64,000 bases of DNA from NCBI GenBank assembly GCA_963799845.1, contig CAWCYI010000004.1:1280001-1344000 (forward strand), read 5' to 3'. The notes beneath the pieces were generated by a model, which was not told the DNA's origin, made no database searches, and saw only the letters and a program-made list of their open reading frames with translations. This DNA is from an uncultured Nitrososphaerota archaeon (GTDB taxonomy: Archaea; Thermoproteota; Nitrososphaeria; Nitrososphaerales; CADDZS01). Shown here in pieces: positions 2,083 to 19,010 of the stretch. The position numbers were made by a program, and so were the translations under genes. Positions within the stretch are counted from its first letter, which is position 1; every line of letters starts with the position of its first letter.

Positions 2083-3468
2083 TTAGCCGGATTCCACAAT
2101 CACAGTTCCTTTCATCCAAGGATGGATGCTGCAATGATAGGCGTAAGTTCCCGGCGTCGTAAACGTATAGCTCCAAGTCTGTCCTTGGTTTAGAAATCCT
2201 GAATCAAACGAACCGTCGTCTGCAGTTACAGTGTGAGTTGCATCATCATTGTTTGTCCAGGTGACAGTGTTGTTTACACCGATCACTACTGTTATCGTCG
2301 TAGGTGAGTAGTACGTGGTTGTGGAATTCACTGCCGATCCCGACTGAATACTAACGGGGACTCCTGGAGCGCCAGATGTTGTCGTCAAGCCAGCAGAAGT
2401 GGAACTTGAGTTCTCAACTTTGAACACCCCAACTGCTCCCGCCTGCGCGTAAGCAAAAGCATGATTCACAAAAGGATTCAACCCGCCTGCATCTGGGAAG
2501 TACATATCAACTATGGCACCCCCGGCTGGAGGTATACTTAGAGTCTGTAATCCATGTTCTACGTTGAACGGATTCCCATCGATATAGACAGTATCCATTA
2601 TTCCACCTATGACGTGAAATGCCTCCCACAGATTGGGGCCCTCGTTGAAGACGTAAAGCCGAACCAACTCGTTTGGATTCACGACTAGCGGATTTGATTG
2701 ATACTGGAAGGCTCTCCCGTTAAAAACTACGTAATCGGGCGTCGCGGCTAGCATCTTCGTATAATTGCCGGTGTAACTACCGTCAGTGCTAGGCTGGGCG
2801 TTCAAATAAAATTCGCTTTCTATCAGCACGTAGGTTCCGCCGGGTGCAGGTGGTAAAGCCCAGCTTCCGGTTCCGTTGACGATTATGACTCCATACATCC
2901 CGTTGGCGATATGCTCCAAGACAGGTGGAACACCGCAGTGATACATGAATATCCCTGGATAGGCAGGGGTGAAGTTGAACGAGAGTGACTTGCCCGGCAA
3001 GACGGGCGCATAGACGGCAGCCCAGTTAACCTGAGCCGCGTGGAAATCTATCGAGTGAGCCATCGTGTCGTTGTTGATTAATGTGAATTCAACGTTCTCA
3101 CAGAGTGTTACCCAGATCGTGGGTCCCGGGATGGTTCCGTTGAAGCTCCAACCGTCGTATGTAACATTGTTCGCAATCTCAACTTTCGCTCTTTCGGCGA
3201 TGAGCGTAATCTTTGTGCTTCCGGCTTGAGAGTTGCAGACTGGTGTCGGGTAACCTTCCGACTGGACACCGCCCGCTTGATGTGTCGTTGTTACTGTTGT
3301 AGTAGATGCCACAGGGCTAGAACTTGAAGTGGTTGATTGGTTCTGTGCGGTCTGCATGTTGGAGTAAATTCCTATGACTCCAGCCCCTAGAATAAAGGCG
3401 ATCGTAACCATAGAGATCGCAACAACGTTTGCAACTGCAATCCTTCTCTTACTTTGGATATCGTTCAT
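2083..3468 (-). CDS. nirK: Copper-containing nitrite reductase (NirK-type) with N-terminal membrane anchor and C-terminal cupredoxin domain
   Basis: HSIDFH, YHCGVPPVLEHIANGMYG, FHVIG and FVNHAF motifs (type 1/type 2 Cu ligands plus catalytic Asp/His); extra plastocyanin-like domain HTVT...YHCSIHPWMKG. Confidence 0.8.
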   Translation of the reverse strand: MNDIQSKRRIAVANVVAISMVTIAFILGAGVIGIYSNMQTAQNQSTTSSSSPVASTTTVTTTHQAGGVQSEGYPTPVCNSQAGSTKITLIAERAKVEIANNVTYDGWSFNGTIPGPTIWVTLCENVEFTLINNDTMAHSIDFHAAQVNWAAVYAPVLPGKSLSFNFTPAYPGIFMYHCGVPPVLEHIANGMYGVIIVNGTGSWALPPAPGGTYVLIESEFYLNAQPSTDGSYTGNYTKMLAATPDYVVFNGRAFQYQSNPLVVNPNELVRLYVFNEGPNLWEAFHVIGGIMDTVYIDGNPFNVEHGLQTLSIPPAGGAIVDMYFPDAGGLNPFVNHAFAYAQAGAVGVFKVENSSSTSAGLTTTSGAPGVPVSIQSGSAVNSTTTYYSPTTITVVIGVNNTVTWTNNDDATHTVTADDGSFDSGFLNQGQTWSYTFTTPGTYAYHCSIHPWMKGTVIVESG

Positions 3469-6659: not shown

Positions 6660-7178
6660 TTGTCTCAAGGCCTTACGGATAAAATGGGAGATATCGGAAA
6701 TGGAATACTCGATGGAATAAGCAAGGGGCTCGACGCCATTGGTTCAAACGTTGAACAGGTGTTCTATTCTGAAATGATGCTCTCCCACAATCTCACCAAA
6801 AACGAGATTCTCGAACGGCCCGAGGAGTTTACAGAGGCAATGTCCAAGTTTTTCAGGGCCGGCACTATGCTGGTCGACAGAGCCATCGGCCGGGAAATAG
6901 TGAAGAATTTTGGAATCCCGGTATGTCCCGGTATAAATTTCAAAACCGCTATGGAGATCGTAATGAAACTTCCCGGGACGAAGAAAAAACCGGAGGGAAC
7001 TCAGGGATACGACCCCAACCTTTGCAAGACCTGTCAAAAGCTTGGAAGACCAGACCCGACGGTCGCGAGGGCGCCTTTCAGCGACTGCCAAGAGCACTTT
7101 ACGAAAAGGGTGATGGAATTGAAAAAGACTGTCACGACGGTGGGAAACCTTCACGTGAATCCCCTGTTCAATCTTTGA
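6660..7178 (+). CDS. Hypothetical protein with C-terminal CxxC...CxxH motif
   Basis: 172-aa ORF; ISKGLDAIG...ILERPEEFTEAMSKFF domain plus CKTC...CQEH. Confidence 0.6.
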   Translation: MSQGLTDKMGDIGNGILDGISKGLDAIGSNVEQVFYSEMMLSHNLTKNEILERPEEFTEAMSKFFRAGTMLVDRAIGREIVKNFGIPVCPGINFKTAMEIVMKLPGTKKKPEGTQGYDPNLCKTCQKLGRPDPTVARAPFSDCQEHFTKRVMELKKTVTTVGNLHVNPLFNL

Positions 7179-7276
7179 CCGCCTCGAAAATTTGGCCGAC
7201 GACTGCTTCATTCTTTCGATGGTACACTAGGAAATTCGAAGTTATGCATCATCTTGATCAGCCATTTGACTGACTC

Positions 7277-7308
7277 CTAAGGCTTGCTGCAAGGCTGTCC
7301 CTTCGCCT
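7277..7308 (+). repeat. Left subterminal inverted repeat of the IS110 element
   Basis: CTAAGGCTT (7277-7285) and GGCTGTCCCTTCGCCT (7293-7308) are reverse complements of 8747-8755 and 8729-8744. Confidence 0.9.
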
Positions 7309-7369
7309 CGCGACTCCAGTCAGTGTTGGAGTCGCTACTTGTTCGTTCGCAAAATGAGGTGTAGGAGAA

Positions 7370-8494
7370 ATGATGAGAAATAAGAGTAAGAAGATTATTC
7401 GAAGAAGTATGAGTAGCAATTGCGTAATCGCAGGAATTGACCTGGGCGATAGTAGCAGCCTTGCAACCGTTCTCTCTCCAGTCGGAGAGATCGCAGACAG
7501 GTTCTCCTTCCAGATGGATGAAGCGGGGTACGCCCTGTTCTCAGACAGAATTCCAAGGGATGCGAGGTTAGCTTTTGAAGCTACCAGCTCGGCATATCCG
7601 TTCTCAAGAATGCTCAAGGAACTAGGATACCACGACATAACTGTAGCTCATCCTACTGAACTTGCCTGGATCGTCAGATCAAAGAAAAAGAATGATAGAG
7701 CTGATAGCTTAAAGATAGCCAAGCTCCATCTAGCGGGTCTGTTGCCCGAATCTCATCTTTTGGCTCAAGAGGAGCAGATAGAAAGAGACCTCTTGATTCA
7801 GAGGGTAAAGCTCGGATCAGAGATAGGTAAAATCAAGAGCAGAATCATAAGCTATCTCAAGAGGGAAGGAGTGTTCGAATCTCTCCCGAAGAGCAAAGAT
7901 AACTTCTCTGCTAGAAGGAGGGTTGCAATCGCCTCAATGAAATTCAACGATGACAGAGACCTCGTGCTGAAAACCATGGTTGAGAGACTCGAATTCATGG
8001 AGAAGCAGTGCGAGCCGTTGGAGCAGAGGATAATGAAGAACGCGAAGGACAACAAATACGTCAGGATGATAATGTCTATTCCTGGCATAGATTACTACCT
8101 CGCTTCGCTATATTCTTCGTACATCGGAGATCCACACCGCTTTCCGTCTTTTGATCACGTCGCAAGCTTCCTCGGGATAATTCCAGAGAGCAAGGATAGT
8201 GCAAACGTCAGGAGGAGAGGAAGAATGTCCAAGGACGGACCTTCCATTGCGAGATGGGCTCTGGGCATAATGACCGACACGGTGCTGCTCTACAATCCGA
8301 ATATCAAGGTATACTACAACGGCGTCAAGCAGAGGACGGGTCGCGGGAGCTACGCCCATGTGCTAGTGATGAAGAAGTTAGCTCGCATGATCCATCACAT
8401 GATGATTACGGAGGAGAACTACAAGTGGGAGAACGAGGCGCTAACAGAAGCAAAGATCTCAAGACTCGATGCCGCTGGAGGTGAATCAGCCTAG
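7370..8494 (+). CDS. IS110-family transposase/recombinase
   Basis: IAGIDLG, LAFEAT, KKKNDRADS (RuvC-like DEDD); IPGID, FLGIIPESKDSA, MSKDGPSIARWAL (C-terminal Tnp20 domain with Ser). Confidence 0.95.
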   Translation: MMRNKSKKIIRRSMSSNCVIAGIDLGDSSSLATVLSPVGEIADRFSFQMDEAGYALFSDRIPRDARLAFEATSSAYPFSRMLKELGYHDITVAHPTELAWIVRSKKKNDRADSLKIAKLHLAGLLPESHLLAQEEQIERDLLIQRVKLGSEIGKIKSRIISYLKREGVFESLPKSKDNFSARRRVAIASMKFNDDRDLVLKTMVERLEFMEKQCEPLEQRIMKNAKDNKYVRMIMSIPGIDYYLASLYSSYIGDPHRFPSFDHVASFLGIIPESKDSANVRRRGRMSKDGPSIARWALGIMTDTVLLYNPNIKVYYNGVKQRTGRGSYAHVLVMKKLARMIHHMMITEENYKWENEALTEAKISRLDAAGGESA

Positions 8495-8728
8495 CGGAAC
8501 AATTGGGATGGAGTTGCAGGCCGAACCATTTGGAGATAATTGAGCCATAGAGCTTTTCCATTTGAGTGTGGCGCCCCGCCTCCGTTAAATCGTCAGAATA
8601 CGCCTAGCTTTGTACTAGAGCGTTTATCGAGTGTATGCGGAAAAGGTGAGGGCAGGTCTGTTCAGCTAGCCCTAGTCCAAACGCTAGCTTGATAAGCGGG
8701 ATGAACGATCTCAGAGATAGAGCAGGTT
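8495..8728 (+). ncRNA. Candidate bridge/seek RNA in the downstream non-coding end of the IS110 element
   Basis: Long non-coding end; short matches to target (CCATTTG, AGATAA) and donor (GAGTG, AGTC); nested stems AGCGTTT/AAACGCT and AGGGC/GCCCT. Confidence 0.5.
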
Positions 8729-8755
8729 AGGCGAAGGGACAGCCCTAAGCCTTAG
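8729..8755 (-). repeat. Right subterminal inverted repeat of the IS110 element
   Basis: AGGCGAAGGGACAGCC (8729-8744) and AAGCCTTAG (8747-8755). Confidence 0.9.
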
Positions 8756-9528
8756 ATGAGTGTTATCTTCTTTAGTCATGAAGAAATTGATCAACCCCTT
8801 TCGCAAAGGACGTGGATTGCCTGCACGATCTAGAGCTCCCGTCATGCTCCACAATAGGTCGACAGAGGCAATGGTTGGATTGACAAGTCTGATATTGATA
8901 TCCTCAATTGTTTGATGACTGTTCTTGAATACTGTTTCAAAGGACGGTGCGTGGAAGCTCTCTATACCCTGCCTTCCCTTTGCAGTCATGCCAACCACAT
9001 TCGAAAAGAAGGATTCCTCAGCGAACACTGAAGCGAAGGCATGAGCGTCGTGATGATTCCACGCATCTACGAAACGGTAGATCACTTTTCGAATGGAATC
9101 TTCTGCTTCGACAGAGTTTATCATGATTCAATTTCACCGAACAGCTCCAAGTTCTTCGGAACGAAAAATTGTACAATTACTCGAACGTGTGGACAAGGAT
9201 GAAATCGAGAATTTCCATTTCCTTCGGCTAGTGTACTCTTCAGATTCTCGCCACCAGCTGGAAGGAGGGAAGTAGTTGATCATCGTTTCGTGATCGCAGT
9301 AAGTTCTTGTTGAAGCTTAAGTATGTAAGGGAGCTCCCCATCCTTACACTTTGGTGAAGACCAGCTGCAATCAGAGTCACACTTCAATATGTCGTTCCCG
9401 AGATTCGTAAGGCCACTCTTTGCTCTTGACGAATCTGAAAGCTCACTTCAAGCATGCGAATCCTGCGGCTATCGTGCCGAAAGGTTTCAAAGCAATGTGA
9501 TTGCTGACAATCGTGGGGATACGAGATT

Positions 9529-13839: not shown

Positions 13840-14399
13840 GGCGGGAAATCAGGATAACTGGACTCGGTGGTCAGGGCGCCATAACCGCCGGACACATCTT
13901 GGGCAGGGCGGCCTCGATTTATGATCGAAAGGAGGCAGTGATGACCGAAGGATACAGCCCTTACATCACAGGAGGGTGGTCGAGAGCAGATCTCATCATC
14001 TCGGATGATCCGGTAGATTTCCCTCTCGTATCGAGCTTGGATGTCCTAGTTGCAATGTATCAGGAGGGACTGGAAACAAACCTGAAAATGGTGAAGCCAA
14101 ACGGGATTGCCATCTCGGAAAGCAGACTCGCAAGAACCTTCGCGGCAAATCAAACTGAGAGACGGAGAGTCCTTTCGGTTCCTGCAGTCGCAGAAGCTGA
14201 GAGGCTCGGGAAGAAGATGCTGACAAACGTTTTGATGTTGGGATCTCTCGAAGCAATCGCTCCCGTCGTAAATCTTGACTCGCTGAAAAAAGCGTTGGTT
14301 GACAGGTTTCCCAAAGCGGCCGAACTCAACCTCAAGGCAATCGACGCCGGATATGAACTTGGACTCAAGGCAACCACGGAGTTGAAGATCGTTGGTTGA
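13836..14399 (+). CDS. korC: 2-oxoacid:ferredoxin oxidoreductase gamma subunit
   Basis: EIRITGLGGQGAITAG, NVLMLG, NLKAIDAGY. Confidence 0.9.
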   Translation: MRREIRITGLGGQGAITAGHILGRAASIYDRKEAVMTEGYSPYITGGWSRADLIISDDPVDFPLVSSLDVLVAMYQEGLETNLKMVKPNGIAISESRLARTFAANQTERRRVLSVPAVAEAERLGKKMLTNVLMLGSLEAIAPVVNLDSLKKALVDRFPKAAELNLKAIDAGYELGLKATTELKIVG

Positions 14400-17300
14400 A
14401 GAAGACTCGAACACAATACTCGTGATCGGCGGTGGGATAGCAGGGATACAGGCTGCCCTGGATGCAGCACACGCCGGTGCTAGAGTCTCCCTAGTTGAAA
14501 AGGAAGCAACGATTGGGGGAAAAATGTCGGTTCTTGACAAAAACTTTCCCACGCTTGACTGCTCGATCTGTATAGAGTCTCCGAAGATGAGTGATGTCGG
14601 ACTGCATCCAAACATAGAACTACTCACCCTTTCCGAACTTCAGAGTCTTGAGGGCGAGCTCGGAAACTTTAGGGCAACGATAATGCAGAACCCAAGATAT
14701 GTCACTGACGCCTGTACAAGGTGTGGAGAGTGCGTACCAGTCTGCCCAATTGTTTTGAAGAGCGAGTTCGACGTCGGAATGTCCGCAAGAAAGGCAATCC
14801 ACACGCCGATAGAGCAGTCAGTGCCGGGAGCTTACGTTATCGATTCCAAGAATTGCCTCAACAAGCCGCCCAATTTCCTACCCTGCAGTAGGTGCATGGA
14901 CGCCTGTGGGCCAGATGCGATCGACTTCAACATGAGGCCGAAGATCCTCCAAAGGAAGGTTGCCTCTGTGGTTGTCGCAACAGGCTTTGACATGCTTGAT
15001 CCCCTGATGCTTCCGCAGTTTGGATATGGAAAGCACCCGGACATTCTTACCTCGATGGAACTCGAACGTTTGCTCCAGGCGTCTGGTCCGAGCCTGGGCG
15101 AGGTCGTGAAACCTTCCGACGGAAGACATCCGAAGAACGTTCTGTTCGTCCTCTGCGTCGGCTCAAGGGACCAGAGATTCTGCAACTATTGTAGTAGAAT
15201 CTGCTGCATGTACAGCATCAAGGAAGCATACCAGCTGAAGGATCACGGAATCGAATCTGTTGACGTTGCGTACATGGATATCCGAGCGTACGGAAAGGGA
15301 TTCGACGAGTTCTACGACCGAACAAGAAACTCCGGAGTAAGGTTCGTTAGGTCAAAGCCCGCAAAAGTCGTTTCAAATGGCAAGAATCTGAGCGTTTTCT
15401 TCGAAGACACGGAATCAGGTACATCTGGGAAGATCAAGGAGGACTATGACATGGTTGTCCTTGCCACTGCAATCATTCCCCCAAAGAGCACAGAACAGCT
15501 GAAGCAAGGTTCTTGGAGCCGAACTTGCCTATGATGGCTTTTTTGAGACTCGCGATGAGTCTGGAGATTTCGTAACAAGCACTAGAAACGGTGTCTACCT
15601 CGCTGGTTGCGCCACGGGACCTAAAGACATACCCGACAGTGTTCTCGAAGCAGGTGCAGCAGTCTCAAAAGCCCTAACTCATGTAAAGCATAGATCATGG
15701 CCTGAAGCCGCGCCAGTAGTTCAACTCGAGTCCGAAGGTGAACCGAGGATCGGAGTCTTTGCTTGTCACTGCGGTTCAAACATCGCAGGCACCGTGAACA
15801 TCCCAGAGCTTGTCTCTTTCGCAAAGACGCTTCCAAACGTAGTACATGCCCAGGACCAAAAGTACTCCTGCGCAGCGAATACGCTCAACGACATTAGTGG
15901 TGTCCTCAAGGAGAAGAAGATTAACAGAGTGGTAGTCGCAGCATGCTCGCCAAAGACTCACTATTCCACATTTCAAGGCTCGCTAAACAGAGCGGGACTA
16001 AACCCCTACCTCTTGGACATGGCGAACGTCCGCAACATGGATTCCTGGGTACACAAGGAGGACAAGGAGGGAGCGCTCAGGAAGGCAAAGGACATGGTGA
16101 AGATGTCAGTGCTCAAAGCCCTAAACATGAAGCCACTTGAACCGATGAAGTTTCCGGTTACCCAGAAGGCGCTTGTCATCGGCGGCGGAGTGGCCGGAAT
16201 CGTTGCTGCGACAAACCTAGCTTCCCAGGGATTTGAGACGCATCTCGTAGAAAGAGCCGAAAAGTTAGGCGGAGTCCTCAACGAATTGAAGGAAATCGCC
16301 CCGCTCGGGATCAAATCTAAGGATCTTCTTGACATTCTTCTAAAGGAATTGAAAGAAAGCGGAGCGATATTACACCTAAACAAGAAGATCGAAAGTATCG
16401 GAGGTTTTGTTGGAAACTACGACATACAGCTATCGGATGGAACCTTGCTGAAAGCCGGAGCTGTTGTGCTTGCCACGGGGGCTCAGCCCTACTCCCCAAA
16501 CGAACTTGATTACCACAAGAATCCCAACGTCCTTACTAGTCTCGAACTTGAAGGAATCGCGGATAACATCGATTCAAAGAACGTTGCAATAATCTCCTGC
16601 ATCGGTTCGAGGAATGAAAAACTAGGTTGCTCAAGGTTCTGCTGCCAGACCATGATAGGTCAGGCAACCAAGCTCAAGGAAAGAGGAAACAACGTAACGG
16701 TGCTCTACAAAGACCTGAGGTCTTTTGCGAGATTCGGCGAAGAAGAATACGAAAAGGCGTGCAGGACTGGCGTCAACTTCGTTCAATATCCGCAGAGCTC
16801 CCTCCCGGAGCAGTCTATCAAGCTTGATTCAAATCACTTGATCGTGAAGGACGAACTCCTCGGCGAAGAGCTTGAGATTCCCGCGGACCTCGTGGTCCTC
16901 AATGTAGGGCTCTCTCCAATCAAGGAGGAGGGCGGAGTGATCCAGCAACTCAAGGTCTCAACCGATCAAGCCGGCTTTACTTTGGAAAGCCACCCCAAGC
17001 TCGGACCGGCAGAGTCGATGGTCCAGGGCGTTTTCCTCGCGGGAACAACTCAATATCCAAAGAGCGTGAAGGAATCAGCAATCCAAGCACTTGCAGCAGC
17101 GGCAAAGGCCTCGTCAATAATCTCAAGGGATGAGATTGAACGCGAACCTTTTGTCGCCGTTGTAGACCCTCTGAAGTGCACAAAGTGCGTTAGGTGCATT
17201 CCCGTCTGCCCATACAACGCGATCAGAGGAGAGCTCGGCAAGAGGATCGAATTCATCACTGCGATGTGCCAAGGTTGTGGAACCTGCGTCGCAGAGTGCA

Positions 17301-17842
17301 TGGTCGAGAGTGCCCTAACCCAGGAGGGTTTTACAGATCGACAGATCATGGCCCAGATTGACGCGGCGCTCTCGGAAGAAGCTTCAAAGAAGGTTCTCAT
17401 CTTCGCTTGTAACTGGTGCTCATACGCAGGAGCCGACCTGGCAGGAGTGATGAAGATCCAGTACCCATCGAACACCAGAATCATTCGAACGATGTGCTCC
17501 GGCAGGGTATCACAGAAGCTCATGCTCTACGGATTTGCAAAGGGAGCCGGTGCAGTACTCGTAACGGGATGCCATCCGGGCGACTGCCACTACATCAGCG
17601 CAAACCAGCAGACGCTCAAGAGAGTCGAAAGGTGGAAGCATCTCCTGAAGACGAGAGGGGTTAATCCCGACAGGCTCCAGCTATGGTGGGTGAGCGCCGC
17701 CGAGGGTAAGAGGTTTGCCGAGAAGGCGAGGGAGATGGATGAACTGCTGAAGCACCTCCCGAGTGAGGAACTGGAATCAACCACCCTCAAGATCAAGGTT
17801 GCTTCGAGAAGTCCTCCGACAGGAGTAGGCGCAAGGAGTTAG
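14392..17842 (+). CDS. hdrA: Tandem HdrA-HdrA-MvhD fusion flavoprotein (about 1150 aa), with one apparent extra base near 15502
   Basis: Two FAD-binding GGGIAG/GGGVAG motifs, FPTLDCSIC, CVGSRD..CSRICC, CHCGSNI, VAACSP, C-terminal MvhD CNWCSY..MCSGRV..GCHPGDCHY; sequence 15503-15793 is open in the frame of the 15794 ORF (GVYLAGCATGPKDI). Confidence 0.88.
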
Positions 17843-17852
17843 TGACGAGCTA

Positions 17853-19010
17853 ATGGCTATGAAAACCGTTCTAAAACAGGAACCAGACTTCTCCAAGAGA
17901 GTGGGAGAAATGTCTGGAGAGATGCTTTCGCTCTGCTACCAGTGCGGAACCTGCACGGCGTCCTGCCCGATGGGAGTACCGGTGAGGCGCCTGATTCGCT
18001 CTTCGCAGTTAGGGTTGAAGGATTTTACCCTAGCGAATTGCGATCTTTGGAACTGCGCGACATGCAAACTATGCGAAACTACATGTCCCAGAGGCGTTCA
18101 GATCACTGACATACTTCATGCGCTCCGAGTCATTGGATATGAAGAAAAGAAAAGCCCGAAGAAACTTGACGGGCCGCTCTGGGGAGTTTACGAAGATGCA
18201 AACCCTTGGGGCGGGAAGAAGGGCGACAGAGCGAAATGGGCAGATAATTTAGGCATAAAGAACGCAGAGAAGAGTAAGGCAAAGTACCTACTTTACGTCG
18301 GTTGCGCAGCATCTTTTGATCCCCGTCTCCAGAAAATTACGCAATCCCTAGCAAAGGTTTTGAGCGAAGCTGGAGTCGATTTCGGAATTTTGGGAGAGAA
18401 GGAAAACTGCTGCGGTGACGTGATTTACCACATAGGCGAGGAAGGCTTTCTTGAAGAACTGGTTCAGAACAACCTCAAGGAGTTTGAGAAAACAGGAGCG
18501 GAGGCAGTCATCTCAATTTCTCCCCACTGCTTCAACATGTTCAAGTCTGTTTATCCGAAGTACGGAAAGATGATTTCTGCCTATCACTACACTGAACTCC
18601 TCTCGGAGTTCATGGACAAGGACCTCCTTCCGATGGTCCCCTCAGATAGGAAGCTCAACATCACCTACCACGATCCGTGCTACCTCGGAAGATATCAGGG
18701 GATCTACGAGGGGCCAAGGAAGATCCTCGAAGGATTGCCGGGTGCTTCCATGACGGAGATGGCGGATAACAAAAGCAACGCCCTGTGCTGCGGGGGGGGC
18801 GGCGGGCAGATGTGGATGGAATCAATCGGTGAGCGGCCTAGCCACCAAAGAGTACTGCAGGCGGTTGATTCAGGGGCATCAATCTTGGCGACATCGTGTC
18901 CTTACTGCGTGCAGAATTTTGAGGATGCGGCGAAGACAAAGGGAGTCCAGAACTTGCAGGTGATGGACGTGGCCGAGATTGTTGCAAAGTCGATGAAGGT
19001 TAAGGGATAA
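17853..19010 (+). CDS. HdrD/GlpC-like Fe-S oxidoreductase (2x[4Fe-4S] plus two CCG domains)
   Basis: CYQCGTCTASCP, CATCKLCETTCP, ENCCG, YHDPCYLGR, CCGGGGG, TSCPYC. Confidence 0.88.
   Translation: MAMKTVLKQEPDFSKRVGEMSGEMLSLCYQCGTCTASCPMGVPVRRLIRSSQLGLKDFTLANCDLWNCATCKLCETTCPRGVQITDILHALRVIGYEEKKSPKKLDGPLWGVYEDANPWGGKKGDRAKWADNLGIKNAEKSKAKYLLYVGCAASFDPRLQKITQSLAKVLSEAGVDFGILGEKENCCGDVIYHIGEEGFLEELVQNNLKEFEKTGAEAVISISPHCFNMFKSVYPKYGKMISAYHYTELLSEFMDKDLLPMVPSDRKLNITYHDPCYLGRYQGIYEGPRKILEGLPGASMTEMADNKSNALCCGGGGGQMWMESIGERPSHQRVLQAVDSGASILATSCPYCVQNFEDAAKTKGVQNLQVMDVAEIVAKSMKVKG

Follow-up and report, generated by a model that had tools for sequence, protein, structure and literature searches.

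The window, by which is meant the whole 64,000-nucleotide stretch of DNA that was analysed, is archaeal in its gene content: it codes for Orc1/Cdc6 and for the large subunit of PolD, which scores 1,316 bits where the cut-off is 1,269. It also carries a copper nitrite-reductase-like gene at 2086-3468 and, at 14392-19007, a run of HdrA-like and HdrC/TfrB-like genes adjoining 2-oxoacid:acceptor oxidoreductase genes. Between these lies a SnoaL-like gene that is split by an insertion sequence with a single transposase gene. The features of the element and of the interrupted gene are as follows.

7208-7268, minus strand: interrupted SnoaL-like gene, C-terminal 19 codons and stop
7262-7268, plus strand: left target half and core, CCATT plus TG, shared by both genomic copies as CCAyTTG and identical to the left-target guide at 8558-8564
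7267-7268: TG, one of the two copies of the core
7269-8762, plus strand: insertion sequence, 1,494 bp with one TG core
7269-7275, plus strand: right donor (RD), ACTGACT, with CTGA at positions 2-5 complementary both to GUCAG 8592-8596 and to the left-end hairpin loop
7277-7308, plus strand: left sub-terminal inverted repeats (7277-7285 and 7293-7308)
7370-8494, plus strand: IS110-family transposase (recombinase) gene, putatively of DEDD/Ser type, 374 aa, PF01548 and PF02371
8729-8762, plus strand: right sub-terminal inverted repeats (8729-8744 and 8747-8755), then left donor and core, ATGAG plus TG (8756-8762)
8763-8770, plus strand: right target half, TTATCTTC (TTATCTCC in the second copy), complementary to 8532-8539
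8763-9124, minus strand: interrupted SnoaL-like gene, N-terminal 120 codons (Pfam SnoaL_2)

The transposase matches DEDD_Tnp_IS110 (PF01548; E = 7.5e-9) and Transposase_20 (PF02371; E = 2.1e-16), both above their gathering scores, and scores 161.2 bits with the NCBIfam model NF033542, 'IS110 family RNA-guided transposase', for which the cut-off is 140. Its C-terminal domain aligns with those of the IS621 (E = 4.8e-5) and ISCro4 (E = 8.8e-5) transposases, and S277 falls opposite the serine of the IS621 'ESG' motif, the next residue being alanine and not glycine; the catalytic loop of IS621 is S241-G242 (PMC11208160; PMC11208158). In the N-terminal part, D24, E70, D109 and D112 are invariant in four relatives and are the putative catalytic DEDD residues. 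Matches in a plasmid collection reach at most about 29% identity and are labelled only 'IS110 family', which makes them uninformative for the subgroup. At window position 7585, inside the gene, the window has C where all four soil DNA runs have G, which is an assembly or strain difference.

Borders, insertion site and layout

A second, near-identical copy of the element lies on another contig of the same archaeal genome (G000:C6:337307-338818). The flanks of the two copies differ, and alignment of one with the other fixes the element at 7269-8762 with TG at both borders, which read CCAyTTG/ACTGACTCC on the left and GATGAGTG/TTATCTyC on the right (the slash marks the border); the borders assumed in the first-pass annotation were correct. 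The two copies have in common a 15-nt site, CCAyTTG/TTATCTyC. Insertion is thus site-specific, with only the short core TG repeated at both borders and without terminal inverted repeats. In a genome of the same genus the SnoaL-like orthologue is uninterrupted, and the conserved flanks are separated by an identical 37 nt, provided that the empty site is taken to hold one TG. Only one further target site with up to one mismatch occurs in the 4.6 Mb genome.

The non-coding ends are unequal, with 101 nt on the left (7269-7369) and 268 nt on the right (8495-8762), the latter downstream of the transposase gene. The sub-terminal repeats are 100% complementary over 9 nt (7277-7285 with 8747-8755) and 16 nt (7293-7308 with 8729-8744), lengths that fall inside the range of about 7-17 bp of the IS1111 group. 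A longer non-coding region downstream of the gene together with sub-terminal inverted repeats is the layout of that group (PMC11208160; PMC11187229). Judged by sequence, the element is a member of the IS110 family and, by layout, of IS1111 type.

Relatives and a conserved fold in the right end

Relatives came from a protein search within the same order, in which 10 of 201 genomes, counting the own one, had matches at E <= 1e-30, from a scan of species-representative genomes (56 loci) and from a metagenome scan from which 80 loci were kept, 16 of them close; loci retrieved twice by different routes were counted once. The close loci among the 56 (49-76% identity) are all archaeal MAGs by title, with hosts in the Thaumarchaeota/Nitrososphaerota, Thermoplasmata and Bathyarchaeota, and haloarchaeal elements in the same scan are more distant (26-32% identity). 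The left borders of relatives were placed by the conserved ACTG...GTAA start and their right borders by the sub-terminal repeat, and guide windows were taken at fixed offsets from conserved RNA anchors.

Of 140 sequences searched with a profile of the right end, 43 matched, each time downstream of the gene. In the own genome this profile has three matches, namely the two intact copies and one frameshifted relative, and the same search found no orphan copies of the RNA there. The frameshift of the third relative (G000:C4:2116337-2117613; L017 and L018; 52-61% identical) lies in its transposase gene; the RNA region is nevertheless intact, with guides that fit the flanks of this same element (GUAUAGGA with TCCTATAC). 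On contigs C4 and C6 of the genome, another and only distantly related IS110-family transposase (24% identical) is present in at least four full-length copies, one of them at C4:1233738-1234766, some 46 kb before the start of the window.

The alignment of the right ends (alignment A4, 21 elements) was folded with RNAalifold, and gives the following elements of structure.

8499-8690, plus strand: conserved structured RNA region, the candidate bridge RNA or seekRNA
8505-8507 with 8670-8672, 8512-8513 with 8666-8667, and 8515-8522 with 8655-8662: helix P1
8526-8529 with 8568-8571: helix P2
8542-8545 with 8552-8555: helix P3
8577-8581 with 8644-8648, and 8582-8585 with 8637-8640: helix P4
8600-8603 with 8620-8623: helix P5
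8689-8696, plus strand: A/T-rich box TTGATAAG, 3' of the RNA, about 67-74 nt from the right end

In the consensus fold, the long-range helix P1 closes two arms, one made up of P2, a loop and P3 and the other of P4, a loop and P5; the first is predicted to be the loop that binds the target and the second the one that binds the donor. The consensus helices are paired in 94.9% of cells and show double, compensatory changes in 18 of 33 pairs, a result that none of 500 shuffles equalled, and helices slid along the alignment as controls are paired in 30-50% of cells. In the window, P1 includes one U-U and three G.U pairs, and the window sequence folded alone is no better than its shuffles (z = -1.27). 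An Rfam scan of 7100-8900 at E <= 10 returned chance matches only and no bridge-RNA family.

The structure that the first-pass annotation had drawn from the single sequence, a stem of 8619-8625 with 8679-8685 and an inner stem of 8649-8653 with 8669-8673, did not survive this comparison: it is paired in 64.7% of cells, has two pairs with double changes and was equalled in 472 of 500 shuffles. In the consensus, AGCGU pairs instead with the upstream ACGC at 8600-8603, forming P5, and not with AAACGCT.

The A/T-rich box may be a TATA-like archaeal promoter that faces outward. At its position, most of the 21 rows of A4 show strings resembling TAATA or ATAAA (judged by eye, uncounted), and no such box is present in the 101-nt left end. 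As a promoter it may drive the transposase gene only across a circle junction. In L026 and L027, two copies in one MAG, the RNA region is cut short just past the left-target guide (...GAGTRTGAC), where unrelated sequence takes over; this looks like another insertion or a rearrangement inside the putative bridge-RNA gene.

Guide segments and the sites that they match

The internal loops of the two arms hold the segments that correspond to the target and to the donor, and these are listed with an earlier candidate.

8532-8539, plus strand: right-target guide (RTG), GGAGAUAA, P2/P3 internal loop, 5' strand; pairs with the top strand TTATCTyC
8558-8564, plus strand: left-target guide (LTG), CCAUUUG, P2/P3 internal loop, 3' strand
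8592-8596, plus strand: probable right-donor guide (RDG), GUCAG, P4/P5 loop, 5' strand; pairs with the RD top strand CTGAC 7270-7274
8626-8633, plus strand: left-donor guide (LDG), AU(C)GAGUG, P4/P5 loop, 3' strand; matches the right-end terminus and core
8674-8677, plus strand: AGUC, the earlier-proposed right-donor guide, just 3' of P1 at a conserved rGUC position

The right-target guide is the reverse complement of the right flank, at 8 of 8 positions in the second copy and at 7 with one G.T in the window. Across relatives, the segment just 5' of P3 scores 7.57 of 9 with its cognate flank as against 3.57 (sd 1.30) with non-cognate flanks (30 distinct guide/flank pairs), a result that is unchanged with one pair per distinct guide (n = 25), and 25 different right guides each match their own flank. 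On the other strand, the segment just 5' of the conserved AGUGUGG scores 6.41 of 9 with the left flank and core as against 3.77 (27 pairs), the left matches being shorter than the right ones, typically 5-7 nt. With the core excluded, the scores are 6.80 of 8 against 3.07 for the right guide and 4.38 of 7 against 1.71 for the left. In permutation tests that ignore kinship among the elements, the observed sum was reached in 0 of 20,000 permutations for either guide. Misses are counted in: the intact relative L024 matches at only 2 of 9 positions on the right and 5 of 9 on the left, and L031 at 4 of 9 on the left.

Retargeting can be followed between close relatives. In L020, whose transposase is 76% identical, GUGAGAA stands with TTCTCAC, and in L075 (81% identical) GGCGGUAA stands with TTACCGCC; in both, the RNA scaffold is almost unchanged and the guides have been swapped along with the sites. 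The two target sites in the own genome differ by T/C in each half; facing these positions the guides have G (8533) and U (8561), which makes both sites wobble-compatible. The segment complementary to the top strand lies 5' of that complementary to the bottom strand, the guide order of IS1111 seekRNAs and the reverse of that of IS110 (PMC11187229).

Covariation of guides with targets among homologues was the comparison that the first-pass annotation had proposed, and the guides do covary. The short strings on which it had drawn are all present, with CCATTTG starting at 8526 and 8558, AGATAA at 8534, AGCGTTT at 8619, AAACGCT at 8679, AGGGC at 8649, GCCCT at 8669, GAGTG at 8629 and AGTC at 8674. 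Its match of AGATAA to the right target is borne out by covariation as part of the longer guide GGAGAUAA. Of the two CCATTTG strings that it had read as guides, the second (8558-8564) covaries and the first (8526-8532) belongs to stem P2: it overlaps an invariant ACCAyU, the P2 strand that pairs with GUGG 8568-8571, and is therefore structural and not a guide. Going by how often each string occurs in the window, 0.029 occurrences of CCATTTG and 0.092 of AGATAA are expected per 268 nt, and AGATAA falls 10-40 nt 5' of CCATTTG in 18 of 200,000 shuffles.

On the donor side, the left-donor match earlier seen in GAGTG (8629-8633) proves to lie within a covarying guide, AU(C)GAGUG. The segment before UAUGCGGAAAA scores 6.18 of 7 with the right-end terminus and core as against 4.24 (11 pairs; 0 of 20,000 permutations, kinship ignored), and it covaries with the termini GAGTG, GAATG, GGGTG, GCGTG, ACGCG, ACCTG and GTCTG. 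A second GAGUG, at 8564-8568 directly 3' of the left-target guide, was tried as a donor guide and rejected, as it remains GAGUG, GAAUG or GAACG irrespective of the right-end terminus.

For the right donor, GUCAG at 8592-8596 is the probable guide, taken as such because its position mirrors that of the right-target guide. This stretch is the most conserved of the RNA and is nearly invariant, like the right donor itself, and since the donor is nearly invariant (ACTG), covariation is sparse. In 22 of the 29 distinct elements with a known left end, RD is CTGN and UCAG is found at window 8593-8596, in the P4/P5 loop, as well as in the loop of a left-end hairpin. The two elements with RD TTGA have UCAA in both loops, and L023 and L029 (RD CAGA) have UCUG in both; L024 (RD CAGT) has UCUG in the left-end loop only, its P4 loop being unchanged, and the CTCA variants L078 and L080 (RD ACTCA in both elements) are uncompensated in both loops. 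The UCAG of the P4 loop thus follows RD in four of five TTGA or CAGN variants with a known left end and in neither of two CTCA variants. The AGTC at 8674-8677, put forward earlier as the right-donor guide, shows no compensatory change with RD variants, despite its conserved rGUC position, and finds no support in that role.

The bridge-RNA reading, its precedents and its alternatives

The best explanation of these observations is that the 268-nt right end is the source of a bridge RNA (seekRNA) directing the putative DEDD/Ser recombinase to its insertion site, a reading to which a probability of about 0.9 is assigned on comparative sequence evidence. This agrees with the central proposal of the first-pass annotation, that the downstream end of an archaeal IS1111-type IS110 element encodes a bispecific guide RNA with a TG core, which now stands as a prediction backed by covariation, by PF01548 and PF02371 and by NF033542. 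By analogy with IS621 and with IS1111-type seekRNA elements, the element would excise as a circle joining right end, TG and left end, and the RNA, which is probably processed out of the transposase transcript's 3' portion, would bridge the circle junction and the CCAyTTG/TTATCTyC site. The recombinase would then exchange strands beside the TG core, leaving one TG at each border.

The nearest precedents in layout are the IS1111-group seekRNA elements ISEc11, ISPa11 and ISKpn4 (PMC11187229), which likewise have a long non-coding region downstream of the gene, sub-terminal inverted repeats and site-specific insertion. Unlike the elements of that group in the accessible text of the same source, the present one has an archaeal host, a transposase of 374 aa as against a typical 330-350 aa, an SA motif in place of SG or TG, and an extra left-end hairpin with an RD-complementary loop. 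With IS621 and ISCro4, as far as the available sections describe them (PMC11208160; PMC11208158), it appears to share a DEDD and Ser recombinase and two loops each reading both strands, of the target and of the donor, and it shares the one core copy left at each border. In contrast to these two, its putative RNA lies in the right end and not the left, the order of guides within the loops is reversed, the donor guides sit in a loop closed by a long-range helix instead of in a simple second internal loop, and the core is TG and not CT; similarity to their transposases is detectable in the C-terminal domain only (E = 5e-5).

It is conceivable, though doubtful, that the element and its RNA are relics, in which insertion was once guided but the present copies are immobile. 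The contigs of four soil DNA runs, in which the element forms its own 1,503-nt piece branching to both flanks, contain no joint, empty site or circle junction, and the 4.6 Mb genome holds only the two copies and the frameshifted relative. Rare molecules, however, are invisible in contigs, and the two copies are near-identical over about 1.5 kb, and in the RNA region one difference was noted; the gene has an open reading frame, and its putative catalytic positions are conserved.

A further alternative accepts the bridge RNA but divides the guide between the two ends, so that the right donor half would be read by a loop in the left end, and not by, or only together with, the right-end segment. 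It concerns the following feature.

7310-7335, plus strand: conserved left-end hairpin, stem 7310-7318 with 7327-7335

The loop of this hairpin, AGUCAGU (7318-7324), is the reverse complement of RD, and the stem has compensatory double changes in six of nine pairs (24 sequences). The loop follows RD in all five TTGA or CAGN elements, including L024, where the right-end loop did not. Against a split guide stand the right-end GUCAG, whose position mirrors the target loop, whose conservation is the highest in the RNA and which covaries in four of five cases, and the possibility that the left-end loop pairs with RD inside one transcript; moreover, no split guide is described in the accessible literature on IS621 and the IS1111 seekRNA elements. 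This division of the guide is accordingly considered unlikely. The hairpin itself may be a second right-donor guide, a means for the leader to pair intramolecularly, or a copy of RD inverted in the DNA.

A more elaborate and equally unlikely scheme would have the donor read in this archaeal clade by two RNA modules, the right-end bridge RNA and the left-end hairpin in the 5' leader, the hairpin serving either as a split second guide or as a switch set by the transcript start. The switch version, covered by the same low estimate, would distinguish a transcript begun outside the element from one begun at the circle junction, and transposase expression would perhaps come from the right-end TATA-like box, productive only after circle formation. 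The hairpin was noted besides in the left ends of L020, L023, L024, L046 and L083.

That the right end is only a protein-binding DNA end, with the protein choosing the target and the flank matches arising by chance, is highly improbable: AGTC and GAGTG are indeed expected 0.94 and 0.24 times per 268 nt, which leaves both uninformative alone, and the single-sequence fold is unremarkable, but guides change with flanks in 25 distinct guide sets (0 of 20,000 permutations) and the helices stay paired through double changes.

On the bridge-RNA reading, a worked-out archaeal family, from MAGs of Nitrososphaerota, Thermoplasmata and Bathyarchaeota, is added to the RNA-guided bridge recombinases. Archaeal members of the IS110 family are already known, as a survey counted 662 IS110 recombinases in 2,835 archaeal genomes (10.1101/2024.06.21.599552); in its accessible text that survey describes proteins without working out an archaeal guide RNA. 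IS110-adjacent RNAs of bacterial and archaeal genomes were grouped into clusters in a 2026 catalogue (10.64898/2026.10.21.760802), which, going by the part of it that is available, may already include the present RNA family. A literature search, beyond whose reach lay supplements and most subscription journals, found no worked-out archaeal bridge RNA. The general picture is unchanged, because most IS110 and IS1111 elements were already predicted to encode such RNAs: a bridge RNA is predicted in 85.7% of IS110-group and 93.0% of IS1111-group entries of ISfinder, according to the available text of PMC11208160.

The guides, the core, the target length of about 15 nt and the scaffold are defined closely enough for constructs to be ordered, and the retargeted natural relatives, together with the wobble-compatible pair of sites, amount to a free data set on specificity. 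A left-end hairpin that tracks RD is a testable oddity that could bear on end recognition or on the control of expression in IS1111-type elements.

A minor observation concerns the core. In the clade of L021, L081 and L078 the core is TG at the left border and CG at the right, with the left-donor and right-target guides matching CG and the left-target guide matching TG. Such borders fit strand exchange 3' of the core with a first core base that differs between donor and target, for which the top-strand cleavage of IS621 is a precedent (PMC11208160; PMC11208158).
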